From Pelotomaculum sp. (GTDB taxonomy: Bacteria; Bacillota; Desulfotomaculia; Desulfotomaculales; Pelotomaculaceae): DNA of 64,000 bases. Each line of letters opens with the position of its first letter. Within the stretch, counting starts at the first letter, position 1. The notes below the pieces were generated by a model. It was given only the letters and a program-made list of their open reading frames with translations, was not told the DNA's origin and did not search any database. Both the position numbers and the translations under genes were made by a program. The stretch covers positions 31,853 through 95,852 of the forward strand of contig JAHDOA010000007.1 in assembly GCA_018435055.1 (NCBI GenBank). Direction: 5' to 3'. Below are positions 565-44,472 of the stretch, piece after piece.

Positions 565-593
565 CGTGTCAAGGGGATGGTTCTCTTGACACG
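565..593. repeat. REP-like hairpin, copy 1 (intact)
   Basis: CGTGTCAAG-GGGATGGTTCT-CTTGACACG, perfect 9-bp stem; core shared with 1115-1143, 1856-1870, 5413-5429 and 57340-57368. Confidence 0.85.
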
Positions 594-641
594 GTTTACT
601 TTAAAGTTTGTTACCCGGCCGGCCTGTTGTTAACCAAAACC

Positions 642-944
642 TTAAAGGCTGTTTTTTTCATAAAAGCTCTCAAGAGCCTCTAATGTTTTTCTGGTGTTAT
701 TCATCATAACTATTCCCAAATTCCATTTACCATGGAGATTACCCGCACTTTTCATAAAAGCCGCATCATAAAAATCATTGTATAATCTTCTCCTTAAATG
801 GTTGATATAATTATTTACCTGACTAAGTATATCTTCATTAGTCTTACCTTCAAATAAAATACCTCTAATTACTAGTGATATTTTCTTGTTAGCCTGTTTT
901 ATCACCGGTTTAAAAAAAGACTTAACATATGTTATTAATCCCAA
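642..944 (-). CDS. hypothetical protein (AT-rich)
   Basis: 100-aa ORF, TTG start with AAGGTGA RBS; no family recognised. Confidence 0.55.
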   Translation of the reverse strand: MGLITYVKSFFKPVIKQANKKISLVIRGILFEGKTNEDILSQVNNYINHLRRRLYNDFYDAAFMKSAGNLHGKWNLGIVMMNNTRKTLEALESFYEKNSL

Positions 945-1038
945 CTATATCATCACCTTTGTTTAAACATCTTTGGCTATATTTTAACATATTACCCTGG
1001 CTAAATTTGTCAATACTAGCCAGTGCCATTCATCCTGT

Positions 1039-1084
1039 AAAAAAGCTTCCTGCATACCTAATAGATGGTAAGCAGGAAGCTTTT
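1039..1084 (-). terminator. intrinsic (probably bidirectional) terminator after GNAT gene
   Basis: AAAAGCTTCCTGC...GCAGGAAGCTTTT stem with A/T tracts on both sides. Confidence 0.7.
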
Positions 1085-1114
1085 ATTGGTAACATATAAG
1101 AACTTCACTAAAAT

Positions 1115-1143
1115 GCGACAGGAGAGAACCGTCCCCTTGACAC
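1115..1143 (-). repeat. REP-like element, copy 2
   Basis: minus strand GTGTCAAGGGGACGGTTCTCTCCTGTCGC; inverted relative to copy 1. Confidence 0.8.
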
Positions 1144-1180
1144 AAAGGACGGACACGACTTATTTGCACTTACAGAGCAA

Positions 1181-1657
1181 TCAGAGATTTTTAAGCATTT
1201 GATAATAAATCAGTTTTATATCTTTTCCCACATCAATATATTTTTCTGCCTGTGTAACATATCCCAGAGAATCATAAAATCTTTTTGCTGTCAGTGATCC
1301 TGACAAATCAACAGCTTTTTGTCCCTCATTTGAAGCCCTGTTTTCCAACTCCTTCATGATTAATTTTCCGAGACCATGCCCTTGATAACATTTATTAACG
1401 AATACCCGCCTGATATTTGCACCAAGCAGTGTCCCAGTTCCAACAATTTCTTTTTCCAACTCCGCAATAATCGTATAACCGTTGAGGTAATCGTCATATA
1501 TGTTTTCTTTACAGTGATATTGTTTGAAAAAGCGTATCGCCTCTTCCGGATAAACACTGGTATACGATTTATCTATTGTATCCATCACCAGGATATAAAC
1601 AGGTTCAATATCTGCCGGTTCAAAGATTCTTAATATCACCTTTTCATTAGTTAACAT
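1181..1657 (-). CDS. GNAT family N-acetyltransferase
   Basis: acetyl-CoA motif A VFVNKCYQGHGLGK and C-terminal AKRFYDSLGY; AGGGGTGA RBS. Confidence 0.9.
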   Translation of the reverse strand: MLTNEKVILRIFEPADIEPVYILVMDTIDKSYTSVYPEEAIRFFKQYHCKENIYDDYLNGYTIIAELEKEIVGTGTLLGANIRRVFVNKCYQGHGLGKLIMKELENRASNEGQKAVDLSGSLTAKRFYDSLGYVTQAEKYIDVGKDIKLIYYQMLKNL

Positions 1658-1775
1658 AAAAGCTCTTCACCCCTTTAGAACCGGCTGACCGGCGACAGGA
1701 GAAAAACCCCGGCCTGAGCCGTGTGTTTACTGACGACTGCCAGAAACTGATGTGTTTAATGCCTTTTTCCACAAA

Positions 1776-1850
1776 GGGCCGTGGTAGTACAGCTATTACT
1801 TCCACGTAGGGCTCTTTCATCCCCTGCCCTATGCCGGTTTATCCCGGCGT
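1776..1850 (-). mobile_element. 5' remnant of a group II intron RNA (domain I start), copy A
   Basis: minus strand ACGCCGGGATAAACCGGCATAGGGCAGGGGATGAAAGAGCCCTACGTGGAAGTAATAGC...CCACGGCCC resembles the GTGCGCCGGG...GAAGGAGTAGC...GGCCCC start of bacterial group II introns (recognised from memory); no RT ORF or domain V. Confidence 0.6.
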
Positions 1851-1855
1851 CTTTC

Positions 1856-1870
1856 GAACCGTCCCCATGA
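1856..1870 (-). repeat. REP-like left arm, copy 3 (right arm apparently displaced to 1692-1702)
   Basis: TCATGGGGACGGTTC; TCTCCTGTCGC at 1702-1692 is identical to the continuation in copy 2. Confidence 0.6.
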
Positions 1871-1996
1871 TCCCCCACACCCCAACCGGGTGTGTTTTTG
1901 TTTGATATTGGTTTTCCTAGTAGCAAAATTTTTATTTACATAAACAATTAAATGGGTATATAATTTACACAGCTAACTATAATGGAAGTGAAGTAA

Positions 1997-2437
1997 TTGA
2001 CTGATAATCTGATTTCTACTTTTGAAGAATTTGAACGGCTGTTAAAGTCAGTCTGGCAAAAATATCACCGGTATGTTGTGCCGGACATTTGCGGTCTTTC
2101 CCCTGTTCAGCTCTTCCTGCTGAAGTATGTACACGACAGAAAAGTCTGCAGACCTTCCGAAATCGCCATGGAGTTCGGGGTTACTCTCGGTGCGGTAACA
2201 GGTTTAATTGACCGTTTGCTCAAACTTGATCTCGTGTACAGAGAGCGCACCGAAGAGGACCGCAGGCTGGTATTAATCAGGTTAACTACCAGGGGAATGG
2301 ATACTGTTAAAGATTTTGACTTGCAACGCCGGCAAAAATTCACGGAGATTGCTCAAAACCTTGATGATGAAGACCTGGCCCGGCTGCTGCCGCTGATGAA
2401 AAAAATGTGCCTGTCCCTTAATAATTTAAAACACTGA
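1997..2437 (+). CDS. MarR family transcriptional regulator
   Basis: LSPVQLFLL...VTGLIDRLLKLDLVYRERTEEDRRLVLIRLT winged-helix signature. Confidence 0.92.
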   Translation: MTDNLISTFEEFERLLKSVWQKYHRYVVPDICGLSPVQLFLLKYVHDRKVCRPSEIAMEFGVTLGAVTGLIDRLLKLDLVYRERTEEDRRLVLIRLTTRGMDTVKDFDLQRRQKFTEIAQNLDDEDLARLLPLMKKMCLSLNNLKH

Positions 2438-2453
2438 AAAAAGGAGCAGCAAA

Positions 2454-4139
2454 ATGGGTATTCTACAGAGAACTGTCGGCTTAACCATTAATACTGTCGC
2501 CGGATCTTTTTTTAGAAATTTTGTTGCGGACACCCGCCGTGCCTCTGATGTTGAAGAATTAGTATTAATGAATATACTGGCGGACAACAAGAACACTGAC
2601 TTTGGCCTGCGTCACGGATTTGCCGGTATTACCTCCAAGAAAGAGTATAAAGATGCGGCGCCTCTGTCCACATACGATAATTACCGAAAAGATATTGAAA
2701 AATTAGCAGCCGGAGAAACCAATATCCTTACCTCGGAACCGGTAAAATATTTTGGCCTCACGTCAGGAACCACAGGGACCCAAAAAATGATCCCTGTCAC
2801 ACCCCGCTCTCACCGCATAGTAGCGGAACATATGGGTTTGTTAATGCAAGGAGTTTTATTTAATATTATCCCTGATTCCCGCCGTTTTGACCGGGGCTTG
2901 ATGCTTATCAACACGGTCACCTCAGGTTTAACACCGGCAGGCATCCCCACCGGCGCCGGCACCTCCGGCGGAATGCAGTCCATGAAGCGGCTGTTCCCGT
3001 ACCTGTGGACCTCACCTGCTGAAATATTTGAAATTAAAAGCCAGCCAGACGCCAACTACCTGCACCTGCTTTTCGCATTGAAGCATAAAAACCTGATGTA
3101 TATTGGAGCGCCCTTTGCCTCCGCTGTTCTGGAGCTGTTTAAGCAGCTGGAAAAATGTTGGCCCAGGCTGGTCGACGATCTGTCCAGAGGAAGCATAAAC
3201 GAAGAAATTCACCTGGATTTACCTGCAAGACACCGTTTGCAAAAAACCCTCCGCCCGGACCGTGCCAGGGCAGATGAATTAAAAAAGGAATTTGAGCGGG
3301 GTTTTGCCGGCATCGCCCGGCGGATCTGGCCCCGCCTCCTTTATATTAACAGTGTCGCCGGAGGCAGCTTTAGTATCTACGCCAAGAAATTAGAGCAATA
3401 TTTAGCGGGTATACCAATTTACTCTGCGGTCTACGGAGCGACAGAGGTCTTTATCGGCATCAGCCTGGAACCAGGTGAAACAACCTATGTTTTAACACCA
3501 AGAACCGCTTATCATGAATTTATTCCACTTAAATTTGCAGATGAAATCAATCCGCAAACGCTCGATCTTGAAGATTTGACTGTCGGGGAATGCTATGAAG
3601 TGGCTGTAACCAATTTTGCCGGTCTTTATCGCTACCGCCTTGGGGATATTGTTAAGGTCGCCGGCTACTACAACGAGTGCCCGGTAATCGAGTTTCTGTA
3701 CCGGAAGGGGCAACTTTTAAACCTCACAGGTGAAAAAACTTCTGAACAGGCTGTTTGCCACGCAGTCTTTCAGGCAGCGGCACGGACGGGTGTTGAGCTG
3801 GTTGATTACACGACGGTGGCTGACTGTGAGAATTCCCCGGGCCGGTATATCTTTTACGTAGAAGTAAAACTACCGGCGGGCGGCGGCAAAAACCTGCGCG
3901 GCACAGACGTGATTGAAGAAGCCCTCTGCCATGCCAATCCACGCTACCAGGCAGGCCGGCAGGCGGGGAAGATCGGACTGCCCGCAGTTAAGGTCGTCAA
4001 ACCCGGGACTTTTGGGGAATTAGTGAAGATACTCATAAAAAATGGCACATCAGCTAATCAATTAAAGATACCGCGGGTAGTAAGCGCTAAGAAACTGGTC
4101 GACTTTTTAGACCGCAACTGCATTTCACCAGGGAGATGA
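2454..4139 (+). CDS. GH3 family acyl acid-amido synthetase-like protein
   Basis: GH3 motifs: LTSGTTGTQKMIP P-loop, YGATE, LYRYRLGDIVKVAGYYNECP...RKGQLLNLTGEK. Confidence 0.9.
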   Translation: MGILQRTVGLTINTVAGSFFRNFVADTRRASDVEELVLMNILADNKNTDFGLRHGFAGITSKKEYKDAAPLSTYDNYRKDIEKLAAGETNILTSEPVKYFGLTSGTTGTQKMIPVTPRSHRIVAEHMGLLMQGVLFNIIPDSRRFDRGLMLINTVTSGLTPAGIPTGAGTSGGMQSMKRLFPYLWTSPAEIFEIKSQPDANYLHLLFALKHKNLMYIGAPFASAVLELFKQLEKCWPRLVDDLSRGSINEEIHLDLPARHRLQKTLRPDRARADELKKEFERGFAGIARRIWPRLLYINSVAGGSFSIYAKKLEQYLAGIPIYSAVYGATEVFIGISLEPGETTYVLTPRTAYHEFIPLKFADEINPQTLDLEDLTVGECYEVAVTNFAGLYRYRLGDIVKVAGYYNECPVIEFLYRKGQLLNLTGEKTSEQAVCHAVFQAAARTGVELVDYTTVADCENSPGRYIFYVEVKLPAGGGKNLRGTDVIEEALCHANPRYQAGRQAGKIGLPAVKVVKPGTFGELVKILIKNGTSANQLKIPRVVSAKKLVDFLDRNCISPGR

Positions 4140-5314
4140 GCTATATGAAAAATCACAGCAGAGAGACTATAATATTATTTTTTAGTTTATTTTTAGTAAT
4201 GGTCGGCTTTGGCATTATCATTCCGATCCTTCCTTTTTTTGTTACGCGCCTTAACGGCAACGCAACAGCGCTGGGATTTTTAATGGCTTCTTATTCCCTG
4301 ATGCAATTTTTCTTTGCTCCATTCTGGGGAAGACTCTCTGATCGAATAGGCCGCCGTCCTGTTCTCCTCATCGGTTTAAGCGGCTATGGCATAACCTTTA
4401 TTCTTTTCGGCCTTTCAACCCAGTTATGGATGCTCTTTTCGGCCAGAATTTTATCCGGTATAATCTCTTCGGCCACCCTGCCGACGGCCATGGCTTATAT
4501 CTCTGATATAACAGCCAGCAAGGACAGGGCCGGGGGGATGGGAACAATGGGAGCGGCCATGGGCCTGGGTATGATCTTCGGACCTGCCCTGGGAGGATGG
4601 CTTGGCCACTACAGCTTCTCACTGCCGTTTTTCGTCGCCGGGGGCCTTGCCATACTCACCCTTCCATTTGCCTGGTTCTTCCTGACGGAATCTTTAAAGG
4701 AACCGGGTGTAAGTACCCAGGAAGGCCGGCGGCTGTCCCTCGAAATATCTAAAAATCCCCAGTTCCCTCTTTTTTTCGTCGCTTTTGTGGTCAGCTTTTC
4801 CATGGCCATGTTTGAGAGTACCTTTGCCCTATTTGCTGCGGCGAGGGTCGGTTTCGGCCCCAGGGAAATGGGACTTCTTTTTACCGTTATAGGTGTTCTG
4901 AGCGTAATCATTCAAGCAGGTATGATCGGCAGGCTTGTCAACAGGTTCGGCGATGCAATGGTGATTACTGCAGGTATCGTTATTTCTGTAATCGGTTTCC
5001 TCCTTCTCATGGTTGCTCCCAATGCTGCTTTTATAATCGTTTACGCCGGAATATTCACCGCGGGAAACAGCCTGCTGCGGCCCAGTATTTCCACACTGGT
5101 CACCAAGACGGCACGTGAAGAAGAGCAAGGTTCCGCGGTGGGAATAATGCAGTCCTTTGACAGTCTGGGACGTATCCTGGGCCCGGTAACCGGCGGCATT
5201 GTCTTTGATTTTAACATCAACTTCCCTTACCTGCTCGGGATAATGGTATTAATTGCAGTTTTACTCTTTTTCAAACGCCACCAGGCCAATTTTTCGATGG
5301 AATCACGTGCATGA
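4136..5314 (+). CDS. MFS drug:H+ antiporter (TetA/Bmr-like)
   Basis: 12 hydrophobic segments, motif A GRLSDRIGRRPVL; ATGA overlap with the GH3 stop. Confidence 0.92.
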   Translation: MSYMKNHSRETIILFFSLFLVMVGFGIIIPILPFFVTRLNGNATALGFLMASYSLMQFFFAPFWGRLSDRIGRRPVLLIGLSGYGITFILFGLSTQLWMLFSARILSGIISSATLPTAMAYISDITASKDRAGGMGTMGAAMGLGMIFGPALGGWLGHYSFSLPFFVAGGLAILTLPFAWFFLTESLKEPGVSTQEGRRLSLEISKNPQFPLFFVAFVVSFSMAMFESTFALFAAARVGFGPREMGLLFTVIGVLSVIIQAGMIGRLVNRFGDAMVITAGIVISVIGFLLLMVAPNAAFIIVYAGIFTAGNSLLRPSISTLVTKTAREEEQGSAVGIMQSFDSLGRILGPVTGGIVFDFNINFPYLLGIMVLIAVLLFFKRHQANFSMESRA

Positions 5315-5399
5315 ATCTGGGCCGTGGTGGCGCGGCTACTCCTTCCACGTAGGGTTCTCTCATCCCCTGCCCTTGCCATATGCCGGTTTATCCCGGTAC
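5305..5399 (-). mobile_element. 5' remnant of a group II intron RNA, copy B
   Basis: minus strand GTACCGGGATAAACCGGCA...GGGGATGAGAGAACCCTACGTGGAAGGAGTAGCCGCGCCACCACGGCCCAGATTCATGCACG; direct repeat of 1776-1850. Confidence 0.6.
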
Positions 5400-5412
5400 A
5401 GTAGAACGGCTC

Positions 5413-5429
5413 AACCGTCCCCGTGACAC
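5413..5429 (-). repeat. REP-like left arm, copy 4
   Basis: GTGTCACGGGGACGGTT next to intron remnant B. Confidence 0.65.
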
Positions 5430-5443
5430 CGCTTGTTATAGTT

Positions 5444-7984
5444 TTAGAAGACGGGAGCCCAGGTGACCAGGGGCAGCTCTGTAAGGGGGAAATCCCTGCT
5501 GTCCGGCCTTACGCGCACCGTATATCCGTAGGAACCCTGCGGCAGGGTCAGGCTGCCTTTATAACGGTAGACATTGTCGTTTATTTCTCCTTCCAGAGTC
5601 ATCGGCACAACTACGATATTTCTCAGCTCACCTTCCACTGCCTCCCCGTACACAATCTCCAGGATGACGCTTCTGGTATAGATCAGGCCCAGGTTGACCA
5701 CAGCGGATATCTTGATCTCCTCGCCGGCGAGCATTTTTGTCCTGCCGCTTGATTCCACTGAAACAAAAGAAACCTGGTCCCAGTAATCAATTATAAGCTT
5801 TTTGAAGTTGGCGGCATGATTAGCCAGGTAATTTTCATTTGCCGCGAACATTTTTCCCCGGTCAATTGCCGGTATGTAAAAGCGATCCGTGTATTCCGCC
5901 ACCATCCGGCCGGTGTTAAAGACCGGAGCGATAGTTTTTATCGTTTCTTTCATCATGCGCACCCACTCCGGTGAAAACCCGTCTTCCCTGCGGTAATACA
6001 TCGGTATAACTTTTTCCTCCAGCACGCTGTAGAGAGAAAAGCAATCGTCCCGGTCCTGGATATCTTCGTTTAAATAGGCTTGGTCGGAACCAACAATAAA
6101 ACCGTTATTTCCATTATAGGCTTCAGGCCACCAACCGTCCAAAGTACTGACATTGATTAACCCGTTTAACGACGCCTTCAGACCGCTGGTACCGCTGGCC
6201 TCCATCGGGCGGCGCGGCGTGTTGAGCCATACGTCCACCCCCTGTACCAGGTGGCGGGCAAGGTGGATGTCGTAGTTTTCCAGCAGCACTATCTTGCCCC
6301 TGAATCCGGGCGTTTGTGAAAAATCATATATTTTTTTAATTAACTCCTGCCCCAGTGTATCGGCCGGGTGGGCCTTGCCGGAAAACACAAACCGCACCGG
6401 GCGTTCATTGTTGTTAAGCAGGCGTTCCAGCCTTTCCGGGGTGCGAAAAAGAAGGGTCGCTCTCTTATATGTGGCAAAGCGCCGGGCAAAACCAATGGTC
6501 AGGATATCAGGGTCAAGATAGCCGTCTACCTCCAGTATGCTCTGGATCGGCTCACGGTTGCGCCGGCGTTGCTGCTTCAGGTTAGCCCGCGCAAAGGAGA
6601 TCATCCTCTCCTTGAGCAACCGGTGCACTCTCCACAGTTCCCGGTCAGGTATCAGGTCAACCTTATTCCATATTTCTTGTTCTCTAAGCTGCTCAAACCA
6701 CCTTTTGCCGAGATAGCGGGCAAAAAGCTCTTTGATTTCCGCAGCCAGCCAGGTCCCTACATGGACACCGTTGGTAACCGAGGTAACCGGTATCTCCTCA
6801 GGGTGTAACCTGCTATACTCGGATTGGAACATTTTTCTCGACACCTCTCCGTGCAGGCGGCTTACACCATTGGTGAGGAAAGCGTGACGGAGCGCCAGCA
6901 GGGTCATGTTGAAGCTGTTTCGCTCCGCATCCCAGGCTAAACCTTTAAGTGTTTTAAGATCTATACCCATTTCGCTAATCATGTGTGCAAAATATTTTAT
7001 TATAAATTCTTCGGTGAAAAGGTCATGGCCTGCCGGCACGGGCGTATGGGTGGTAAAAATAGTTGAGGCCCGCACGACCTCCCTGGCGGTTTCAAAAGAA
7101 ACCATGTAGCGCATCAGTTCCCTGATCCGCTCAATAATTAAAAAGGCGGCGTGACCTTCGTTGATGTGCCAGACGCTGGGGTTAATCCGCATCGCCCGCA
7201 GCGCCCTCACACCCCCAACTCCCAGGACAATCTCCTGGGAAAGGCGGTACTCCCGGTCACCACCGTACAACTGTCCTGTCAGGTTGCGGTCCTGCGGCGA
7301 ATTCTTAGAAGTATCGGTGTCAAGCAAATAGACTGTGACTCTTCCCACTTTTACCTGCCAGACCTGGACAAACACCGTCCTCCCCTGCAATTCCACTGTC
7401 ACGTCGAGCTGGCTGCCGTCGGGGTTGTGCACAGGCGTTATCGGCAGTTCATAAAAATTGAGGTGCGGGTACTCGGCCTCCTGCATCCCTTCGCTGTTTA
7501 TCCTCTGATGAAAATAGCCCTGTTTATACAGCAGGCCGACACCGATAAACGGCAAACCCAGGTCACTGGCTGATTTACAGTGGTCCCCCGCTAAAAGGCC
7601 CAGTCCCCCGGAATAAATAGGGTGGGATTCATGCAGACCGAATTCGGCGGAAAAGTAGGCGATAATGTCCTCTCTATATTCAGGGTATTTCCCGTCAAAC
7701 CAGGTCTTCCGGCTTATGTAGCGGTCATATAAATCAAGCGTCCTCTTGTAAAGGACCAGGTAGTCATCATCATGCGCCGCTCTATCAAGGTCTTCCTTTT
7801 GGACGCGCATAAGAAATTTGACGGGGTTGTGCTCGACTTCCCGCCAGAGTTCAGGATTGATTGATCTGAAGAACTCGATGCCGGCCGGGCTCCAACTAAA
7901 CCAGAAATCATAAGCAATTTCTCTCAGCCGGCTGATTGGTTCCGGCAACCCGGGTGTTACGGATACTATACGGAAAGGAAACAT
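5444..7984 (-). CDS. glgP: alpha-glucan (glycogen) phosphorylase
   Basis: YFSAEFGLHESHPIYSGGLGLLAGD, HINEGHAAF and the PLP motif EASGTSGLKA. Confidence 0.96.
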   Translation of the reverse strand: MFPFRIVSVTPGLPEPISRLREIAYDFWFSWSPAGIEFFRSINPELWREVEHNPVKFLMRVQKEDLDRAAHDDDYLVLYKRTLDLYDRYISRKTWFDGKYPEYREDIIAYFSAEFGLHESHPIYSGGLGLLAGDHCKSASDLGLPFIGVGLLYKQGYFHQRINSEGMQEAEYPHLNFYELPITPVHNPDGSQLDVTVELQGRTVFVQVWQVKVGRVTVYLLDTDTSKNSPQDRNLTGQLYGGDREYRLSQEIVLGVGGVRALRAMRINPSVWHINEGHAAFLIIERIRELMRYMVSFETAREVVRASTIFTTHTPVPAGHDLFTEEFIIKYFAHMISEMGIDLKTLKGLAWDAERNSFNMTLLALRHAFLTNGVSRLHGEVSRKMFQSEYSRLHPEEIPVTSVTNGVHVGTWLAAEIKELFARYLGKRWFEQLREQEIWNKVDLIPDRELWRVHRLLKERMISFARANLKQQRRRNREPIQSILEVDGYLDPDILTIGFARRFATYKRATLLFRTPERLERLLNNNERPVRFVFSGKAHPADTLGQELIKKIYDFSQTPGFRGKIVLLENYDIHLARHLVQGVDVWLNTPRRPMEASGTSGLKASLNGLINVSTLDGWWPEAYNGNNGFIVGSDQAYLNEDIQDRDDCFSLYSVLEEKVIPMYYRREDGFSPEWVRMMKETIKTIAPVFNTGRMVAEYTDRFYIPAIDRGKMFAANENYLANHAANFKKLIIDYWDQVSFVSVESSGRTKMLAGEEIKISAVVNLGLIYTRSVILEIVYGEAVEGELRNIVVVPMTLEGEINDNVYRYKGSLTLPQGSYGYTVRVRPDSRDFPLTELPLVTWAPVF

Positions 7985-8012
7985 ATGACGGCCTCCTGGA
8001 TTTTTTGGGAAA

Positions 8013-8040
8013 CTTCTACTCCGTTCCTGCTAAATCCTTT
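8013..8040 (-). promoter_or_regulatory. SigH-like promoter for glgP
   Basis: AAAGGATTT-N12-GTAGAAG vs consensus RNAGGAWWW-N11/12-RNNGAAT. Confidence 0.5.
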
Positions 8041-8199
8041 TAATCATGATAATATCGATTAAAATTAAAGATATAGCCTGACTTTAACACAAAGCGCTAC
8101 TTATATATTATGAATTTTAGGCGCCGGCCGAAACTAAAAACCCCTTAACCCGCTTCAATCTGAGCGGGAACTGTGAATTTATGTCCTTTAAAAAAAATT

Positions 8200-8226
8200 G
8201 CAGGATTTTTCATTTTATATTCGAAG
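8200..8226 (+). promoter_or_regulatory. SigH-like promoter for the acyl-CoA ligase operon
   Basis: GCAGGATTT-N12-TCGAAG. Confidence 0.5.
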
Positions 8227-8271
8227 TAGTTAAACACTTTCATAACACCGGGGGATAAGGATTTACAAGAG

Positions 8272-10389
8272 GTGAAACTTCATTCAATGGATGCGGTAAA
8301 CAGTTTTACTAACCCGAAATCTCTGGCTGTTATCGGCGCCTCCAACACACCAGGGAAAATTGGCGCCGCTATTGTAAACAACCTGCTGAAAAGCGGTTAC
8401 AAAGGAAAAATCTACCCGATCAACCCGAAAGAAAAAGAAATATCAGGAATCCGGTGTTATGCCACTGTGGCCGATGTGCCGGGGGACATTGAAATGGCCA
8501 TCTTCAGCATTCCCGCCCGTAAAACCCTGGAAACGGCGGAAGAGTGCGGTAAAAAAGGCGTTAAAAACCTGGTTGTTATTACAGCCGGGTTCAAAGAAAT
8601 TGGCCGCGCCGGCGCCGGGCTGGAAAAGGAATTAATGTCGGTCTGCAGTCAATATGGCATGCGCGTGCTTGGTCCAAACGTAGTCGGATTTATTGATACC
8701 CATACTCCCATTAACGCTACTTTTTTAAAAGGATTCCCCCCAAAAGGAGAAATAGCCTTTATTTCGCAGAGCGGCGCCATCCTGGCCTCTATTCTGGATT
8801 GGAGCCAATCGGCAGGCATTGGCTACAGTAAAATTTACAGCCTGGGCAATAAAGCGGACCTGAGCGAGGTTGACTTTATCGCGGAAGCTGCTGCCGATCC
8901 AAACACAAAAGTTATCCTCTGCTATATTGAAGACGTGTCGCACGGACCCGAATTTTTAAAAGTGGTAGGCGAAGCGACTCGCAAAAAACCGGTGATAATT
9001 CTGAAATCAGGCACCAGCCAGTCCGGCGCCCTGGCCGCCTCGTCCCATACGGGGGCCCTGGCGGGAAGTGACCTTGCTTACAAAACAGCCTTCCAAAGAT
9101 GCGGTGTCCTGCGGGTATCCAGCATGTCCGAGCTTTTTGACCTGGCCATATCTTTTGTCAACCAGCCGGCGCCGAAAGGAGACAGGGTGGCCATTATCAC
9201 CAACTCCGGCGGACCGGGCATTATAGCCACCGACAAGGTTGAGGCACACGCCCTGCAGATGGCCCGATTTTCCAGGGAAACTATTGAAGAACTGCGCTCA
9301 TACCTGCCTGCCGAAGCCGGCATATACAACCCGGTGGACGTCCTGGGCGACGCCAAAGCAGACCGCTTCAGGTTTGCTTTTGAAAAAGTTTTCAAGGATG
9401 AAAATGTGGACAGTGTAGTACTGCTGCTGTGTCCCGTGGCGGTAACCGAACCACTTGAAACAGCGCAGGCCCTGGTTGAGTTTAACCGGCTCCACCCGGA
9501 AAAGACAGTCATGGCCGCCTACATGGGCGGCAAATCTCTGGCCGATGGGGCGGCGCTCCTTTCCAGCAGCGGCATCCCCTGTTTTCCCATGCCGGAAACT
9601 GCTGTCGCGGCTGTCGCGGGGATGACCGCTTACAGGAGGATGAGGGATCGCGCGGTAACGGAAGTGAGAAATGCAGACATAAAACCGGACTTAAAAACCG
9701 TTAAGGCAAATTTCTATGATGTCAAAAGAGATAACCGCCTGGCCCTGCTGGGTAGCGAAGCTGCAGAGGTTATCGCAGCTTACGGCATAGCGGCGGCCCC
9801 CACTATACTATCACAAAACCCTGATGAGGCTGCGGCAACAGCTGATCTATTGGGATACCCGGTTGTGCTGAAAATCGCCTCGCCGAAAATTATGCACAAA
9901 ACTGACGTAGGCGGGGTTATTAGCGGACTCCAGTCACCTGAGGAAGTCAAACACGCTTATGTAAATATTATTGAAAATGTCCACCGTTATTTACCCAGGG
10001 TCGTGCCTTATGGTATTGAGGTGCAAAAAATGGTACCGCAAGGAATAGAGCTGATCCTGGGCATGACCAGGGACGTCCAATTCGGCCCCTTGATAGGTTT
10101 CGGCCTGGGCGGAATATATGTTAACCTGATTAAGGACGTTTCCTTCAAGCTGGCCCAGGGCTTGACCAGTGATGAAATAGCCGATATGATAACAGAAACC
10201 AAAGCTTATTCCCTGATGAAAGGCTACCGGGGCAGCAGCCCGGTCGATATCCAGGCAGTGAGCGAAGCGGTTAAGCGCTTGTCTGTATTAGTCACTGATT
10301 TTCCGGAAATAACTGAGATTGATATCAATCCTCTCTTTGCTTATGGAAACAGCATAGCAGCCATCGATGTAAAAATAACCCTGTCTTGA
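8272..10389 (+). CDS. ADP-forming acetate/acyl-CoA ligase (fused alpha-beta)
   Basis: CoA-binding N-terminus (AVIGAS), phospho-His motif SHTGALAG, NPVDVLGDA, ATP-grasp C-terminus (HKTDVGGV, EIDINP); no GNAT domain. Confidence 0.9.
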   Translation: MKLHSMDAVNSFTNPKSLAVIGASNTPGKIGAAIVNNLLKSGYKGKIYPINPKEKEISGIRCYATVADVPGDIEMAIFSIPARKTLETAEECGKKGVKNLVVITAGFKEIGRAGAGLEKELMSVCSQYGMRVLGPNVVGFIDTHTPINATFLKGFPPKGEIAFISQSGAILASILDWSQSAGIGYSKIYSLGNKADLSEVDFIAEAAADPNTKVILCYIEDVSHGPEFLKVVGEATRKKPVIILKSGTSQSGALAASSHTGALAGSDLAYKTAFQRCGVLRVSSMSELFDLAISFVNQPAPKGDRVAIITNSGGPGIIATDKVEAHALQMARFSRETIEELRSYLPAEAGIYNPVDVLGDAKADRFRFAFEKVFKDENVDSVVLLLCPVAVTEPLETAQALVEFNRLHPEKTVMAAYMGGKSLADGAALLSSSGIPCFPMPETAVAAVAGMTAYRRMRDRAVTEVRNADIKPDLKTVKANFYDVKRDNRLALLGSEAAEVIAAYGIAAAPTILSQNPDEAAATADLLGYPVVLKIASPKIMHKTDVGGVISGLQSPEEVKHAYVNIIENVHRYLPRVVPYGIEVQKMVPQGIELILGMTRDVQFGPLIGFGLGGIYVNLIKDVSFKLAQGLTSDEIADMITETKAYSLMKGYRGSSPVDIQAVSEAVKRLSVLVTDFPEITEIDINPLFAYGNSIAAIDVKITLS

Positions 10390-10398
10390 GGTGATAAC

Positions 10399-11454
10399 AT
10401 GAAAAACCTTTATATTACAGGTATCGCTGGATGCGGCAAGACTGCCATTGCGCTGGGCATCGCCCTGAAACTGAAAGAAGAAGGCGTCAAGGCCACCTAC
10501 TTTAAGCCTGTGGGGAGCCGCCCGAAACTGGCCTGCGGTAGAGACAACGACGCCCTATTAATGCAAGAGATCCTGCACATGAAGGCTGGTGTGGAACAAA
10601 TCGCGCCTTTTACTGCCGGCACCTCGTACCTGTCAGGGCTGAAGAATCCGGAGACGGCTATGGCCAGCATCATAGCAGCCTATCAGGCCATCTCCGCGGA
10701 GGCGGACCTGATCATTATTGACGGGGCTACCTTTCCACATGTGGGCGCCGCTTACGGCCTTGATGTAGTCTCCCTGACTCCAAAGTTTAATGCTTCGGTC
10801 TTAAATGTGATCAAGGTGGAGAACGATCTCAGCGTGGATCAGGCCATCTTCTTCAATAACTGCTGCAGGTCGAGCGGACTGGCGGTTTCCGGGCATATTT
10901 TCAACAATGTTCCCAGGCAGCTGCTGGCCAAAACAGAAGGGGTTTTCAAACCGGTTTTGGAGAAAAAGGGCTGCGCTACCCTCGGCATTATACCAATGCG
11001 ACCGGAAATTGCCTCGCCTACTGTTGCGGAGTATTATGAAGCTCTGGGCGGTGAACTGCTGACCGGTGAAGACAAACTGAACAGACTGGTAGAAGAAGTC
11101 GTAGTGGGGGCCATGACTATGGAAAGCGCCCTAAAGTATATGCGCCGTTCAGCAAATAAGGCGATTATAATGGGGGGAGACCGGGCTGATATGGCCCTGG
11201 CCACCCTTGAGACCAGCACATCAGCTTTGATTTTAACAGGCGGCCTTTATCCGGATGTGAAGGTAGTTTCCCGCGCTGCCGAGAAAGGCGTACCTATTAT
11301 TCTTGTTCATTATGACACATATACCACGATAGAAAGATTAACGGAAATATCCAGGCGGATCAGCCCCGGCGACGCCACCGGCATCAATATCGCCAAGGAA
11401 AACATCGAGCAGCACTGTGACTGGAAATCAATTATCAAAACCCTTGAGGAGTGA
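10399..11454 (+). CDS. BioD-like/DRTGG domain protein (Pta N-terminal region only)
   Basis: P-loop GIAGCGKT, YFKPVG, GGDRAD (DRTGG-like); lacks the Pta catalytic domain. Confidence 0.85.
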   Translation: MKNLYITGIAGCGKTAIALGIALKLKEEGVKATYFKPVGSRPKLACGRDNDALLMQEILHMKAGVEQIAPFTAGTSYLSGLKNPETAMASIIAAYQAISAEADLIIIDGATFPHVGAAYGLDVVSLTPKFNASVLNVIKVENDLSVDQAIFFNNCCRSSGLAVSGHIFNNVPRQLLAKTEGVFKPVLEKKGCATLGIIPMRPEIASPTVAEYYEALGGELLTGEDKLNRLVEEVVVGAMTMESALKYMRRSANKAIIMGGDRADMALATLETSTSALILTGGLYPDVKVVSRAAEKGVPIILVHYDTYTTIERLTEISRRISPGDATGINIAKENIEQHCDWKSIIKTLEE

Positions 11455-11464
11455 AACAATTGGG

Positions 11465-11494
11465 GCCTGCCGGGTTAAACCGGCAGGCTTTTTT
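11465..11494 (+). terminator. intrinsic terminator
   Basis: GCCTGCCGG-N6-CCGGCAGGC-TTTTTT. Confidence 0.85.
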
Positions 11495-11590
11495 AACTGC
11501 TGACAGCCAAATATTTTATTATGGATTTTTTATGCTGTAATTTTATTTTTTTTGGCTAAACTAAATAGGATAAAAAACGGGGGGGTTTTG

Positions 11591-12238
11591 ATGTCTGACC
11601 ATAGTCCTTCCAACGTAGTGCTTGAAAGGGATATTGACTGGTCCGGGACCATCGGGGTTACCGTTCCTGTCTCCGATGTGCAGGTTTACCAGCGGGCTGA
11701 AAATATTGATCTGAAGATTATAAATGACGGCATTCTAAGGGTACAGGCGGCATTAAAGCTGTTTGCCATGGTCACGGCCGGGCTGGATGAAAAACATATT
11801 TTTAACCCGGCCAAGATATTTACCAACGTCATTAATATCAATTCTTTTATTCATCTAAAATCTAAAATCAAACGGGAAGACATAATATCAGTGGACTATG
11901 GTCTGGATATTAAAAATTATGCTCTCCGGCCCGATAACATAATTATCAGCGGAACATTAAAACTGAAGATAAAATACGTCATCCACCTGGTCCTGGATGG
12001 TGTGGTAATTGACTTTGCCGGCAACAATGCAATTAACGGCGCCACTATAAATGTAAAGGACTTAGAAAGCGGTGAGATAAAAGCAACTGTGACTACCGGC
12101 AGCGACGGCAGGTATTCTTTCAATAACATGCCCCCAGGTATCTACCTGGTTGAGGCTTTTACAGACTCCCATAAGCTGGAACAGAAGGTGAGCGTGATGA
12201 AAACACGGGACACCGTGAATTTTGTTCTACACCAGTAA
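11591..12238 (+). CDS. hypothetical protein with C-terminal carboxypeptidase-regulatory-like domain
   Basis: C-terminus GATINV...TTGSDGRYSFNNMPPGIYLVEA; ATG at 11591 has a G-rich RBS. Confidence 0.7.
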   Translation: MSDHSPSNVVLERDIDWSGTIGVTVPVSDVQVYQRAENIDLKIINDGILRVQAALKLFAMVTAGLDEKHIFNPAKIFTNVININSFIHLKSKIKREDIISVDYGLDIKNYALRPDNIIISGTLKLKIKYVIHLVLDGVVIDFAGNNAINGATINVKDLESGEIKATVTTGSDGRYSFNNMPPGIYLVEAFTDSHKLEQKVSVMKTRDTVNFVLHQ

Positions 12239-12248
12239 CCCCGAAACT

Positions 12249-26888: not shown

Positions 26889-26914
26889 CAGTTTTAATAG
26901 AATATAGCCGCACT

Positions 26915-27086
26915 TAAAATAGTGAACAGGTCGCATTTAATAGCGTTAAAAGGGAAGTCCGGTATGATCCGGCGCGGTCCCGCCACTGTAAGGGGATGAA
27001 CTCTAAAATGTCACTGGTCAGGCTCAGCTGCCGGCCGGGAAGACAGAGCCGTCAAATGACCCTCAGCCAGGAGACCTGCCTGTTCT
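26915..27086 (+). promoter_or_regulatory. cobalamin riboswitch 1
   Basis: AAAGGGAAGTCCGG...CCGGCGCGGTCCCGCCACTGTAA...CACTGG...GGGAAG...AGCCAGGAGACCTGCC (B12 box); terminator-like hairpin at 27166-27197. Confidence 0.93.
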
Positions 27087-27254
27087 TTAATCACTAAAAT
27101 ACCTACGGTTGATAGGTAGTGATTGTTCAGGTCAAAGTTGTTATTACGAAAAACCTGGATGAACTGCCCCGTCCCCGTGTTTTAGGTCGGGGTTTTTGAT
27201 TTATATAAGGCTATGTGCGCATAAATTTTTGTGAGATGAGGATGGTGTTAGGGT

Positions 27255-31436: not shown

Positions 31437-31480
31437 AAGTTGTAGCAAATATTTGACAATTGAGTGATTACTGTTTTACA

Positions 31481-31672
31481 AACCGCTCAATTCTAATAGT
31501 TAGAAGCGGGGGAACCAATCTTTACCGGGGTGAATCAATTCAGTAGTTAGTAGTTAGTAGTCAGTAGTCGAACACCATCTGACAACAGACTACCCACAAC
31601 CGACTACCGAATCGTAGGGCTATTCTTTCAGCCCGAATCCGTCAGCTAACCTCGTCAGCGTTGAAAGGGAAG
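31481..31672 (+). promoter_or_regulatory. c-di-AMP (ydaO/yuaA) riboswitch
   Basis: CCGCTCAAT...GCGGGGGAACCA...GGGGTGAATC...GTAGGGCTA...CCCGAATCCGTCAGCTAACCTCGTCAGCG consensus blocks. Confidence 0.92.
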
Positions 31673-31738
31673 CAGTTTAATTTATATATGCCGCATAATT
31701 CTGCCATGCGCTCATGCATTATATTGCGCGTTCCTTTT

Positions 31739-32665: not shown

Positions 32666-32742
32666 CTGGCCTTTTTTATCCCAACCAATATTTTTTATAT
32701 GGACAAATCTACTGGTTGATGTTAGGATGTTCTTAATTAAAA

Positions 32743-32916
32743 AATACTGTCCAGGTACTCCGGAGATGGAGTGTGAAAAGGGAACCGGGTGCGAATCCCG
32801 GACGGTCAGGCCACTGTATGTGGGGAGCGGCTCCCTTGATGCCACTGGGTTAACGGTTAGCCCGGGAAGGCGGGAGTATGGCTGAGATCCACAAGTCAGG
32901 AGACCTGCCTGGTCAG
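32743..32916 (+). promoter_or_regulatory. cobalamin riboswitch 2 (no credible downstream CDS)
   Basis: AGGT...AAAAGGGAACCGGGTGCGAATCCCGGACGGTCAGGCCACTGTA...GCCACTGGG...CCCGGGAAGGC...AAGTCAGGAGACCTGCC. Confidence 0.92.
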
Positions 32917-33053
32917 TTGGTACCGCCTTCCGTGTAAAGGCCGGGCTGTTTTTTGTTTTTCACAGTGTTTTAGCTTTGGGAAACCCGGATTTCTCAGCGA
33001 AGGAGCCGGGTTTTCCATTTGTCTCCTTCTTCCAAAATCATTTTATTTTATTT

Positions 33054-39000: not shown

Positions 39001-41004
39001 TTAGTCATGTACTGTCAGGCTGCTGACTTTTCCGTTCTGTAAAACAATTGCAACCTCCGCATCGTCGTCTATATCTCTCAGTTTGATTTTATCTCCACGC
39101 TTGTCTTCCAGGAGCGGGACACGGACAAAGCTGTAAGTAAACCTGTTGCCGCTTACCTGTTCTATCTTTATCTTGTTATCGCCCTCACTAACGTATATTA
39201 CTGTTCCTGCCAGAGTAATGTCTTGATCGTTGGTTATTTCAATCCTTGTAACATAATTGTCGTCATTCACCCGGATTTTGACTTCAGCGCCGATTACAAT
39301 ATCACTCAGGCTGATGCTTTTACCTTCCCGGTAATATTCTGCGTTTCTTGCTAAATTATATTGCATCCTGCTGCCGTTGCTTTTTCTAATCCTGATCATT
39401 TTTTGCGAGCCGTCAGTTATTAGATCATTGACCGCGCCTTCTATGACAGAGTATTTTTCCATTACCTCGATATAGTAAACGCGGTCTTTGCTGTTCAATT
39501 TCAGCCTTGCCCATTCTCCTATATCCAGGTCATTAAAATCAATATCGCGGCTGTCCCGTACCACATCAACGTCGTCAAGCACAATATATCTCACATCTTT
39601 TCCCTCATCGTCCCGCAAGGTTATCCGCAGGGTCCCTCTGACAGTAAGATCTCTTATTTCTCCTTCTACTTGACTGGTGACTGACTCAAGCACCCTGATG
39701 CGGGAAACAAGGCCTTTGCTGTTCAGCTCCAGTCTTACCAACTCCCCTATCTCCAGGTCGTCAAAATCAATATCATAGCCGTCTCTTTCCACAGCAACGA
39801 TGCCGGCCACAACACATTTTACATTTTTCCCCGCATCATCCCGTATGGTTATCCCCGGGGTCCCCCTGCTATTCAGCTCATTTATTACACCTTTTAAAAT
39901 GGCGGGCGATGCAAGAAAATTAATTACAGTGATTTTGTTGTCTAAAATTTGGACTTCTATATACTCTCCCTTAACCAGCGCGGAAACATCCACACGGCCG
40001 CCTGTTTTATCAACTTTAACGCCGTCTGCCACCGCTCTGGTTATTTCTTGCCCGTCATCGCACACGAGGCCCAGCCAATATTGGCCGTCAATTGTCAGGA
40101 TGGAATTCACCACGCCCCTGTATTTTTGGCCATCATCCTGCAGCCGGGCGTTAATATAAACAGCATACAGGCTCTCATCTAAAATAAGCTGTACCGCGTC
40201 CCCGGCCTTGAGCTCGTCCGGGGCTATATTATTCCCGTTTTTAAAAACCTCACAGTCGGCAGTATAGAATATGCTGCCGTGATCCTTGATTTTTATCATC
40301 CGGCCGGCCAGGTCAATGTCTGAAATGACACCGTTTGTACGACGGTTAGCGCAGGGGTCGGCATATTTAAGCCCTACAATGTTAGACATCAGAACAGCCA
40401 TCTGAGCCCGGTTAATATTGTCATTGGGTTTGAATACATTGCCGGGCAATCCCTGCATAATGCCGTTCTTGACCACCGCAGCCACCCCATCCCTGTATTT
40501 ACCCGGTATTTGGTCCGCATCGCTAAATTCCAGTGCGCCGCTTTCCGGTTCAAATTCAAGGGCGTGGAAAGCCAGCATGGCCACTTCCGTACGGGTCGCC
40601 GGGGCGTTTGGCTGCAACAGGTAGAGATAGTCCCCATCCAGTATACCCAGGTTAACTGCCATAATTAGGTAACCCCTGCCCCAGTAAAGGTCAGAGGGCA
40701 TCCTATAATCAACAGGGTCCTCTTCAGCCGCCTTTGCCTGATCTTCCAGTCCGAGCATCCGGATCAGCATAGTCACCGCTTCCAGCATGGTGACATTGTT
40801 ATATGGCTTGTAAATAGCTCCCGGGTAGCCGGCAACTACTCCGCTGGCTGCCATTTCAGCTATAGCCTGCCGGGCCCACGAGGCTTCCTCCAAATCCACA
40901 AGCTTGCTTCCCTCAGCTTTTAACGCCTCTCCTCCGGCAAGGGTTAATAATACCGCCAACACCAGGACCAGAGAACAAAATCTTATATTCCTAAAAATCG
41001 ACAA
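39001..41004 (-). CDS. S-layer homology domain surface protein with repeated beta domains
   Basis: signal peptide, three SLH repeats (GYPGAIYKP.NNVT, ATRTEVA, GLPGNVFKPNDNINRAQMA), tandem repeats of about 75 aa. Confidence 0.9.
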   Translation of the reverse strand: MSIFRNIRFCSLVLVLAVLLTLAGGEALKAEGSKLVDLEEASWARQAIAEMAASGVVAGYPGAIYKPYNNVTMLEAVTMLIRMLGLEDQAKAAEEDPVDYRMPSDLYWGRGYLIMAVNLGILDGDYLYLLQPNAPATRTEVAMLAFHALEFEPESGALEFSDADQIPGKYRDGVAAVVKNGIMQGLPGNVFKPNDNINRAQMAVLMSNIVGLKYADPCANRRTNGVISDIDLAGRMIKIKDHGSIFYTADCEVFKNGNNIAPDELKAGDAVQLILDESLYAVYINARLQDDGQKYRGVVNSILTIDGQYWLGLVCDDGQEITRAVADGVKVDKTGGRVDVSALVKGEYIEVQILDNKITVINFLASPAILKGVINELNSRGTPGITIRDDAGKNVKCVVAGIVAVERDGYDIDFDDLEIGELVRLELNSKGLVSRIRVLESVTSQVEGEIRDLTVRGTLRITLRDDEGKDVRYIVLDDVDVVRDSRDIDFNDLDIGEWARLKLNSKDRVYYIEVMEKYSVIEGAVNDLITDGSQKMIRIRKSNGSRMQYNLARNAEYYREGKSISLSDIVIGAEVKIRVNDDNYVTRIEITNDQDITLAGTVIYVSEGDNKIKIEQVSGNRFTYSFVRVPLLEDKRGDKIKLRDIDDDAEVAIVLQNGKVSSLTVHD

Positions 41005-43220: not shown

Positions 43221-44075
43221 TCAGCAGCCACGACCGCCTGACACGTCCGGCATCTCCAGAATGTCGGCCGCATTTTCCAGCCAGTCCCCTTCATAAAGCT
43301 CAACCAGCCCTCTGTCGCAGGCTGTCGCAAGCCTTGGCTCGATAGGCAGCCTGGCCAGCACGTCGATTTTAGACTGCCGCGCGATTTCCTCAATGTGGCT
43401 GTTACCGAATATTTGATGTTCTTTCCCGCAGTCAGGACATTTGAAATACGCCATGTTTTCAACTATACCGGTAATCGGTATATCCATCATTTTGGCCATT
43501 TTTACCGCCTTGGACACTATCATTGAAACCAGTTCCTGGGGAGATGTCACAATTATTATCCCGTCAACAGGTATCGATTGAAACACGGTAAGAGCCACGT
43601 CCCCCGTTCCAGGCGGCATATCAATAAACATGTAATCCACGTCGCCCCAGATCACATCTGTCCAGAACTGCTTTACTGTGTTCCCGATAATGGGGCCCCT
43701 CCAGACAACCGGGTCCGTTTCATCCGGCAGCAGCAGGTTTATCGACATGATTTCGACGCCAGTTTTGCTCTTTGTCGGCAGCAGGCCGAAATCATTCCCC
43801 GTTGCTTTCTCCCTGATACCAAAGGCCTTGGGTATGGACGGCCCGGTAACGTCCGCATCCAGGATGGCCGTATTGTAGCCCCTCCTTTTCATCGTTACGG
43901 CAAGCAATGACGTTACCAGCGATTTGCCGACTCCTCCCTTGCCGCTGACAATGCCGATGACTTTCTTCATATTGCTCATTTCGTGGGGCCTGGCGAAAAG
44001 ATCTTGCGGTGTCTCCTTTCTTTCAGCGCAGTCTTCACCGCAGGCGCTGCATTTTTGGTCACAGTCTTTGCTCAT
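43221..44075 (-). CDS. Mrp/NBP35 Fe-S cluster carrier ATPase
   Basis: SGKGGVGKS, DADVTGPS, DMPPGTGD, CPDC; Cys-rich N-terminus. Confidence 0.93.
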   Translation of the reverse strand: MSKDCDQKCSACGEDCAERKETPQDLFARPHEMSNMKKVIGIVSGKGGVGKSLVTSLLAVTMKRRGYNTAILDADVTGPSIPKAFGIREKATGNDFGLLPTKSKTGVEIMSINLLLPDETDPVVWRGPIIGNTVKQFWTDVIWGDVDYMFIDMPPGTGDVALTVFQSIPVDGIIIVTSPQELVSMIVSKAVKMAKMMDIPITGIVENMAYFKCPDCGKEHQIFGNSHIEEIARQSKIDVLARLPIEPRLATACDRGLVELYEGDWLENAADILEMPDVSGGRGC

Positions 44076-44112
44076 ATCCTCTCTCCTTTATGATTATATG
44101 TCATTTGGATTT

Positions 44113-44472
44113 TTAGATCAGCTTTTGCCCGGCCCTGTGCCTGAAACACCTGCCGCACCCGTGTAACTGTTCGCTGCCGTCGCAAAGCTTATAATCCCCA
44201 CCCTCAATCTTCAGCATATTTCCCCTGACCAGGAATGCCGCGATTTTCCTGCGGGCTTCATTATAGCTCCTCTGAACGGTGGTGCGGGCAACATTCATTC
44301 TTTCCGCGCACTCTTCCTGCGTCATCGCTTCTAAATCTATGAGGCGGATGGTTTCAAATTCATCTATAGTCATGATGATCTTTTCCCCAGTCGGGCGATG
44401 CGCGTTAAGCGGCCCGAACAAGCTGTTTTCCGGCAGGTTGCATACCTTTCTCCGTTTTCTCGGCCGGGGCAT
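44113..44472 (-). CDS. DUF134 family HTH protein
   Basis: [12 protein letters not shown]....FGP...[27 protein letters not shown]...IEGGDY. Confidence 0.9.

Follow-up and report, generated by a model that had tools for sequence, protein, structure and literature searches.

REP-type hairpins mark a probable insertion hotspot between yaiI and glgP in Pelotomaculum

The subject of this analysis is a 64-kb stretch of the genome of Pelotomaculum sp. (GenBank assembly GCA_018435055.1, contig JAHDOA010000007.1; hereafter, the window), and within it the interval between the conserved genes yaiI and glgP, in which members of one family of hairpin-type repeats lie between a gene for a hypothetical protein, a GNAT acetyltransferase gene and a MarR-GH3-MFS gene group. 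A first-pass annotation had suggested that this arrangement may be an integron-like cassette array. Our results indicate that the interval is probably a hotspot of plasticity and insertion marked by repetitive extragenic palindromes (REPs) and scarred by mobile elements, rather than a cassette system of the integron type. According to this reading, a doublet of inverted hairpins would have settled in the short convergent spacer between glgP and yaiI of the Pelotomaculum lineage, and this spacer would then have become a hotspot, different lineages holding different genes between the outer hairpins. Mobile elements, here a DDE insertion sequence (IS) and a group II intron, would enter preferentially at the hairpin loop.

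The repeat family and its transposase partner

A search with the 18-mer GTGTCAAGGGGACGGTTC, allowing up to three mismatches, located five copies in the window, at 566–583 (+), 1126–1143 (−), 1856–1873 (−), 5412–5429 (−) and 57341–57358 (+), against a mean of 0.04 in shuffled sequences, none of 100 of which reached five. The core GGGGACGGKT was found three times, compared with 0.27 expected. All five copies are intergenic. Between yaiI and glgP, each of the four gaps separating transcription units holds a copy, as opposed to one of the approximately 35 other gaps of the window (hypergeometric p ~6e-5); for these counts, yaiI was substituted by hand for an overlapping open reading frame (ORF) chosen by the script.

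The four repeats reported earlier between yaiI and glgP are therefore present where they had been placed, but only one of them, at 566–592 (+), is a full hairpin. This complete hairpin of the REP/terminal inverted repeat type (GTGTCAAGGGGATGGTTCTCTTGACAC) begins 2 nt past the yaiI stop codon and folds at −21.7 kcal/mol (z = −6). The only other full hairpin in the window, at 57341–57367, is part of a solo copy of a second subtype (57315–57367, +), in which partial tandem GTGTCAAGGG units precede the hairpin. This is one of two related copies suggested previously outside the interval; it is real, although the match lies at 57341 and not at 57315. The other, at 44502, was rejected as a family member, being a different simple palindrome (AACAGGGGATTGTCCCCCTGTCAC) that shares neither the geometry nor the core.

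In the remaining three copies, at 1126, 1856 and 5412, the 5' arm and the loop core are kept and the 3' sequence is unrelated, which makes them half-hairpins. The half-hairpin at 1126–1143 (−) consists of the 5' arm and core GTGTCAAGGGGACGG followed by TTCTCTCCTGTCGCATTTT, and is a chimera of two stem subtypes: its 5' arm comes from the GTGTCAAG subtype, and its 3' side, TTCTCTCCTGTCGCATTTT, belongs to the GCGACAGG subtype, which occurs in the relative L134. The half-hairpins at 1856–1873 (−; GGATCATGGGGACGGTTC) and at 5412–5429 (−; GTGTCACGGGGACGGTTG), the latter 14 nt past the glgP stop codon, are the ends of a direct repeat of about 100 nt (1776–1873 and 5306–5429), which the first-pass annotation had not noted. 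The hairpin is multi-copy in the genome to which the window belongs, since metagenome run X1 contains at least six further contigs, equal in depth (~50x), that end in it. Rfam, searched at the gathering cut-off and at E values up to 10, returned no family for the hairpins of the window or for the sequence following the core at 1856 and 5412.

Apart from chance matches in GC-rich genomes, a scan with the motif GGTGTCAMGGGGAYGG over one genome per species showed it to be clearly over-represented in Syntrophomonas, Pelotomaculum, Sporomusa, Lachnospiraceae, Congzhengia and other Bacillota. Clostridia and Negativicutes carry it widely. Members of the family are built of GTGTCAAGGGGACGG, five variable bases and TTGACA(C), which together form the hairpin; inverted doublets are frequent, as are hairpins accompanied by partial tandem copies. 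Different genera share an identical 15-nt core, and the stem variants (GAGACAA/TTGTCTC, GAGCCA/TGGCTC and GTGCC.../...GGCAC) differ by compensating changes.

The suggestion that these repeats are REP-like, with a partner of the REP-associated tyrosine transposase (RAYT) type, was borne out in other genomes. At loci L023, L103 and L129–L133, a 253-aa Y1_Tnp/REP_Tyr_transpos gene lies between inverted copies of the motif. The product of the ORF in L023 and L103 starts with MPRxARxxSxxGIYH and matches Pfam Y1_Tnp and NCBIfam REP_Tyr_transpos, the latter with 81.8 bits against a cut-off of 80; the RAYT protein extends about 110 aa past the Y1 domain, and this tail has no Pfam match. About 6000 homologues were found; among the matches listed, the top ones are 65–83% identical, many are named REP-associated tyrosine transposase, and they span Desulfitobacteriaceae, Peptococcaceae, Syntrophomonadaceae and Negativicutes. 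A single conserved chromosomal site, between a tRNA methyltransferase gene and a T1RH-like gene, harbours the RAYT gene in a Peptococcaceae lineage, where inverted GTGTCATGGGGACGGGGTTGTTGACA and partial GTGTCATGGG units flank it. As judged from these sequences, the repeat family is associated in other genomes with a conserved single-copy HUH-Y1 protein of the RAYT/TIRYT type. The solo copy at 57315–57367 is laid out like the upstream end of such RAYT loci (cf. L131). As had been noted earlier for recombinases in general, no RAYT-type gene was found in the 64-kb window by tblastn.

Two further observations concern these loci. Many RAYT homologues are located on contigs of about 1 kb, that is, of about gene length, which fits flanking repeats breaking short-read assemblies. 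The 3' arm of the hairpin contains TTGACA (586–592 in the window), and at RAYT loci (L131:5941–6001 and others) this hexamer is found about 17 nt upstream of a TAAAGT/TATAAT-like box preceding the RAYT start codon; judging by this spacing, the hairpin may also serve as a RAYT promoter or operator.

The yaiI-glgP locus and its breakpoints

The loci of relatives were fetched at glgP identities from 91% to 68%, and a glgP tree was built. Among seven relatives (L120–L123, L125, L126 and L128), glgP and yaiI are adjacent in four (L121, L123, L125 and L126), and L120, L122, L128 and the window have differing content between the outer hairpins. No hairpin lies between the adjacent genes in L125 (glgP identity 87%), in L123 and L124 (79%) and in L126 and L127 (73%). 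In P. propionicicum (L121; 88%), the spacer holds solely a 58-nt perfect inverted doublet consisting of GTGTCAAGGGGACGGTTCTTCTGACAC, GATC and the reverse complement. The locus of L122 (87%), like that of L137, is composed of a complete hairpin, the GNAT gene, a degenerate counterpart of the chimeric half-hairpin, the hypothetical ORF and a second complete hairpin; in L122, the GNAT gene and the hypothetical ORF are enclosed by inverted 33-nt terminal repeats of the hairpin kind. In L120 (91%), a degenerate half hairpin is followed by TusA, a sulfur transporter gene, a second hairpin-like site, an MFS gene, its promoter region and a complete hairpin. Finally, in L128 (90%), the counterpart of the half-hairpin at 5412 is split by a DDE IS.

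In all genomes having them, the outer hairpins lie 2 nt past the yaiI stop codon and 4–14 nt past the glgP stop codon; their positions are identical across five genomes, and the hairpin at 566–592 has the same position in L120, L121 and L122. Since the outer hairpins are fixed and the content between them differs, the spacer is a hotspot, with the cargo located between the halves of the doublet found in P. propionicicum. Gain and loss of genes between yaiI and glgP, with hairpins at the outer and most of the inner boundaries, had been proposed as a test of the role of the repeats and is indeed seen in the aligned relatives; the exceptions are discussed below. On the evidence of these alignments, the adjacency of glgP and yaiI is the ancestral arrangement. 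The identity of the window to the P. propionicicum locus is 93.1% on the yaiI side (1–593) versus 82.8% on the glgP side (5413–12238), and this jump at the doublet suggests recombination between lineages at this point, the two segments having different histories.

Compared to L122, the window contains 3,642 extra bases (1771–5412), and homology on the glgP side stops exactly after GGGGACGGTT. Taking the aligned loci together, new DNA recurrently begins directly past GGGGACGGTT(C). A DDE IS with the terminal inverted repeat GAGAYYRCTGAAAAAG and a transposase carrying DUF772/DDE_Tnp_1 domains abuts GGGGA(C/A)GGTTC in L012, L062, L088, L110 and L128. In these five genomes of different families, the insertion is found at the same loop nucleotide, after GGGGACGGTTC (L012:6314, L062:4248, L088:6304, L110:192 and L128:4591–6287), and the DDE IS appears to be REP-specific in Firmicutes.

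The sequence that follows the core at 1856 and 5412, either immediately or after 12–15 nt, was identified solely through a metagenome match. A gapped pattern scan retrieved one metagenome contig (L138), in which a group II intron (RF02005, 178 bits) with a reverse-transcriptase ORF begins with this sequence. Introns annotated with ltrA on thousands of plasmids match the intron region of L138, and a Cupriavidus intron starting with GTGCGCC can be aligned with it. The window carries two remnants of the 5' end of such an intron, both on the minus strand: one comprising part of domain I at 1776–1855, immediately downstream of the half-hairpin at 1856 (88.8% identity to the L138 intron over 80 nt), and one at 5306–5396 (80% over 91 nt); they are about 85% identical to each other. 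They retain approximately 80–115 nt and lack the conserved 5' GUG, domains V–VI and the reverse transcriptase, and are therefore dead remnants; searches for Intron_gpII or D1D4 gave no match in the window. On either side of the MarR-GH3-MFS block lies a copy of a unit consisting of a half-hairpin and an intron 5' end; the two copies are direct and have diverged.

Two other identities were considered for the intron-derived sequence. A dispersed repeat or miniature inverted-repeat transposable element was rejected, since metagenome run X1 holds just the two local copies at ≥80% identity and none beyond them. A small ORF (MKEPYVE...) was also rejected, since the similarity stops after 15 codons and tracks the DNA repeat. 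The pattern was not found in viral contigs.

Eight metagenome runs from several studies hold the species; they were analysed as contigs, so that rare forms would be missed. The excised forms expected by the first-pass annotation were not seen in them: one fixed gene order was observed, with no module-skipping or excision joint and with equal depth of cargo and flanks. Joints from 593 to 1124 in read layouts were considered as a deletion of the hypothetical gene and rejected, as they derive from other hairpin doublets of the genome (20-nt sides). In a second strain, divergent by a few percent (runs X8, X9, X12 and X14), a 10-nt deletion is present at 1849, and the MarR-GH3-MFS segment (1818–5339) assembles as a looping 3543-nt contig with a depth equal to that of the flanks. 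This contig was not accepted as evidence for a circle, because a direct repeat enclosing a unique segment yields such a graph at flank-equal depth. The two intron remnants of the second strain are similar enough to give this assembly, which may reflect gene conversion between both repeats.

The gene content of the three modules, assigned from ORFs and Pfam matches, agrees with the earlier description. The conserved flanks are yaiI (DUF188; 132–563, +; Pfam PF02639, 1.7e-38), which neighbours glgP in L121, L123, L125 and L126, and the glgP-like alpha-glucan phosphorylase gene (5444–7984, −), the product of which is 88% identical to the P. propionicicum protein; an exact look-up of the window's own phosphorylase sequence returned no match. 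The hypothetical 100-aa ORF (642–944, −; 30% GC) has a homologous segment in L122 and L137, and the GNAT gene (1181–1657, −; 35% GC) adjoins glgP in L122 (95% identical) and in L134 (65%). With 30–35% GC versus 48% for the window, these two genes have a foreign composition. Between them lies a strong terminator-like stem-loop (1034–1090), which explains the only weak Rfam hairpin matches there. The divergent gap between the GNAT and MarR genes contains an orphan terminator-like stem-loop (1876–1905, +) made up of CACACCCCAACCGGGTGTG and a subsequent run of T, and a similar sequence is found beside the yaiI-side hairpin of L120. The third module comprises genes for a MarR-family regulator (1997–2437, +), a GH3-family adenylating enzyme with the GH3 N, M and C domains (2454–4139, +) and an MFS transporter (4136–5314, +), the final codons of which extend into the second intron remnant. 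In L120, the MarR gene is missing and the promoter region and MFS gene remain; the MFS orthologue shows 84% nucleotide identity as far as window position 5287. No relatives of the GH3 module were found in the searched metagenome contigs.

Competing explanations

According to the hotspot explanation, the inner repeats of the window would be scars, that is, hairpins broken after the loop core GGGGACGGTT(C), where the DDE IS and the intron insert too. The MarR-GH3-MFS group most likely entered by homologous recombination, of the Campbell type or by double crossover, via the homology of half-hairpin and intron remnant. Later recombination via hairpin and mobile-element ends and the conserved flanks would have brought in or rearranged modules and left half-hairpins, and the low-GC GNAT and hypothetical genes would represent older foreign DNA. 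The mechanism of recombination, the order of events and any role of cleavage by RAYT are what we infer from the junctions described above.

Several observations weigh against this explanation. The RAYT gene is present in other Clostridia and has so far been seen in no Pelotomaculum, nor in the genome analysed here, of which the 64-kb window was searched. The glgP tree is compatible both with insertion of genes into the doublet and with deletion down to it. At the locus of L134 (glgP identity 68%), GNAT (65%), a gene for a 255-aa protein and a PhdYeFM/YoeB pair follow one another from glgP to yaiI; none of the boundaries has a hairpin, although the hairpin family is carried elsewhere in this genome; the site may thus be permissive for reasons besides hairpins. 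Having the GNAT gene and other cargo at the same site, L134 also comes close to the finding that the first-pass annotation had named as contrary to its proposal, namely the same genes in relatives lacking the repeats. Hairpin-free insertions or deletions within the shared 18 kb affect a response regulator, Flg_hook/Bac_export_2 and a CoA ligase (L125), and the MarR-GH3 difference to L120 is likewise not accompanied by a hairpin. Moreover, the IS cases were found partly because the loci had been fetched with the motif, and the direct repeats prevent the true MarR-GH3-MFS breakpoints from being placed inside the repeat.

Part of this evidence would be expected if the hairpins, mobilised by RAYT, had passively accumulated in permissive spacers of recently acquired DNA and at convergent gene ends, without a causal part in gene turnover, and marked the boundaries because there is no other non-coding DNA there. 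REPs are extragenic by nature, the hairpin-free cargo of L134 points in this direction, and a doublet has been gained or lost at a second junction of the region, between radical SAM and CarboxypepD_reg genes (L120, L122, L123 and L126 have it; the window and L125 do not). Passive colonisation, however, predicts complete hairpins or doublets, yet three of the four copies in the array, and more in L120 and L122, are half-sites cut at one loop position, and one copy (1126) is a chimera of two subtypes. Neither the identical placement of the outer hairpins across five genomes nor the enrichment in four of four gaps against one of about 35 is readily accommodated. Truncated and chimeric sites fit this model less well than the hotspot model, and we consider it possible but unlikely. 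The resemblance of the repeats could also be convergent, if they were ordinary intrinsic terminators or regulator binding sites; they do follow the stop codons of convergent genes, and TTGACA in the 3' arm is placed like a −35 box in RAYT loci. A 15-nt core that is identical across genera, linked to RAYT, multi-copy and able to break assemblies makes this highly improbable, as do the existence of half-sites without a stem and the modules' own terminators (e.g., 1034–1090).

The integron-like model, in which hairpins act as attC-like sites and a RAYT acting in trans excises and integrates hairpin-bounded cassettes as single-stranded circles, draws on the location of the RAYT genes themselves between inverted hairpins, the inverted 33-nt terminal repeats around the GNAT gene and hypothetical ORF of L122, the chimeric hairpin at 1126 and the variation of cargo by lineage. 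The details of the array do not favour it. No integrase, attI, attC-like unit or common promoter was found; the copies are of mixed orientation and mostly lack the 3' arm, two of the boundaries are intron remnants fused to half-sites, and the loop position concerned is the one targeted by the DDE IS. No module was seen in a second hairpin-bounded genomic context; the GNAT homologues occupy the same site, except in L136, where the surroundings are unrelated and hairpin-free. The absence of relatives of the GH3 module and of excision joints or depth deficits in the metagenome contigs points the same way, and the model is doubtful at best. A more speculative idea, suggested by the chimeric hairpin at 1126, is that the GGGGACGGTT loop core could be a shared recombination site of Firmicutes: RAYT would cleave single-stranded hairpins and join hairpins of different origin, and modules would be exchanged between distant Clostridia at REP landing pads. 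We regard this as improbable; if true, it would represent a counterpart of integron cassette capture based on HUH enzymes, and the IS and the group II intron would be taking advantage of that site too.

Related systems and wider context

REP and REPIN repeats with RAYT (TnpA_REP) proteins were reportedly described by Nunvar in 2010, Bertels and Rainey in 2011 and Ton-Hoang in 2012. REP/RAYT systems are also treated by Quentin et al. 2018 (PMC6006769). The family analysed here shares with REPtrons the multi-copy short extragenic palindromes occurring singly or as inverted doublets, the single-copy HUH-Y1 gene at a conserved chromosomal position with flanking inverted repeats (here, in other Clostridia) and the preference for convergent gene ends. 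Unlike in REPtrons, the stems start with GTGTCAA, GAGACAA or GTGCC and are free of a GTAG or CGTC tag, and conservation centres on the loop core GGGGACGG instead of the stem foot. Motif and enzyme are not species-specific but shared by different families and classes of Firmicutes, and copy number seems modest.

From the sequences compared, the closest described kind appears to be the TIRYT/TIRtron class, in which inverted repeats sharing GGGGWSAS flank Y1 genes (Di Nocera et al. 2013, PMC3733652). The RAYT-like Y1 proteins of this class are longer than classical RAYTs owing to a C-terminal extension, and some of the repeats are self-complementary and occur in dispersed families (PMC3733652). 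TIRYTs have been equated with TnpA_REP subclass 2.1, near whose genes no REP-like sequences were found (PMC6006769). The core GGGGACGG matches GGGGWSAS at seven of eight positions, and GGGGACAG of some relatives fits fully. In contrast to the surroundings reported for subclass 2.1 genes, those of the RAYT genes studied here include clear hairpins, copies of which also occur dispersed in the genome. Subclass 2.1 is characterised by a C-terminal HTH (Bac_DnaA_C-like) extension of the Y1 protein; the 253-aa protein, with its tail of about 110 aa, is a candidate member.

REPs at convergent gene ends in Proteobacteria have been reported as hot spots for ISs with high REP selectivity and proposed to be safe landing sites, and in P. 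putida KT2440 two of nine group II introns are in REPs (Tobes and Pareja 2006, PMC1525189). The present case differs in that a Firmicute family is involved, in the fixed loop position of the IS1182/IS5-like DDE IS, and in the series of gene contents at one REP site.

The likeness to integrons rests solely on imperfect hairpins at the edges of unrelated genes, and the system is not of the integron family. IntI, attI and Pc are missing beside and between the yaiI and glgP flanks, the modules lie on both strands and have their own promoters and terminators, including a three-gene operon with its own MarR regulator, three of four boundary sites lack the second arm, and no excision was seen in contigs. 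Group IIC-attC introns target attC sites, a curious parallel to the intron remnants found here. The minimal mobile elements of Neisseria, reportedly described by Saunders and Snyder in 2002, are said to be genes varying between strains within conserved flanks in which homologous recombination takes place; short repeats are said to be often nearby, but the model requires no specific repeat, whereas here the repeat positions coincide with breakpoints. The locus is of a known kind, that of RAYT/TIRYT systems and the REP hot spots of Proteobacteria; what is new is the case in Clostridia, the unusually conserved core and the well-resolved states at one site.

The second convergent junction, between radical SAM and CarboxypepD_reg genes, shows hairpins at L120:5797, L122:5089–5145, L123:3298 and L126:4929–4975, arranged across relatives as one hairpin, a doublet, a hairpin with an extra 464-aa gene or a tandem pair; it is hairpin-free in the window (12239–12248, a 10-nt spacer) and in L125. 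About 40 kb away on the glgP side, the window encodes DUF134 and a ParA/NUBPL-type ATPase (43221–44472), and the palindrome at 44502 lies immediately upstream of DUF134. Both families recur just past yaiI in L120, L122 and L125, which may reflect a paralogous cluster or a large rearrangement. The window also contains two cobalamin riboswitches (26911–27097 and 32736–32926) and one c-di-AMP (ydaO) riboswitch (31474–31674), all on the plus strand and well above Rfam gathering scores. Six to seven tandem 102-nt units with 61–74% identity (58257–58970) in the ORF at 58229–59083 (−) encode tetratricopeptide repeats (seven TPR_1 matches). Two 205-nt direct repeats with 72% identity, 228 nt apart (39464–39896), are located in a 667-aa ORF (39001–41004, −) and probably represent an internal protein repeat.

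Work on REP/RAYT systems has been almost confined to Proteobacteria. For a RAYT found widely among Clostridia and Negativicutes, a clear hairpin partner can now be seen, while the large subclass with C-terminal extensions was reported to be without REP-like partners (PMC6006769). A single site displays graded states, namely empty, carrying a doublet, and carrying a doublet split by varied cargo, by an IS or by intron remnants. The locus would thereby provide a concrete example of REP-type repeats channelling insertions and gene turnover in syntrophic digester Firmicutes, and the loop core is a candidate substrate for biochemical work on this class of RAYTs.

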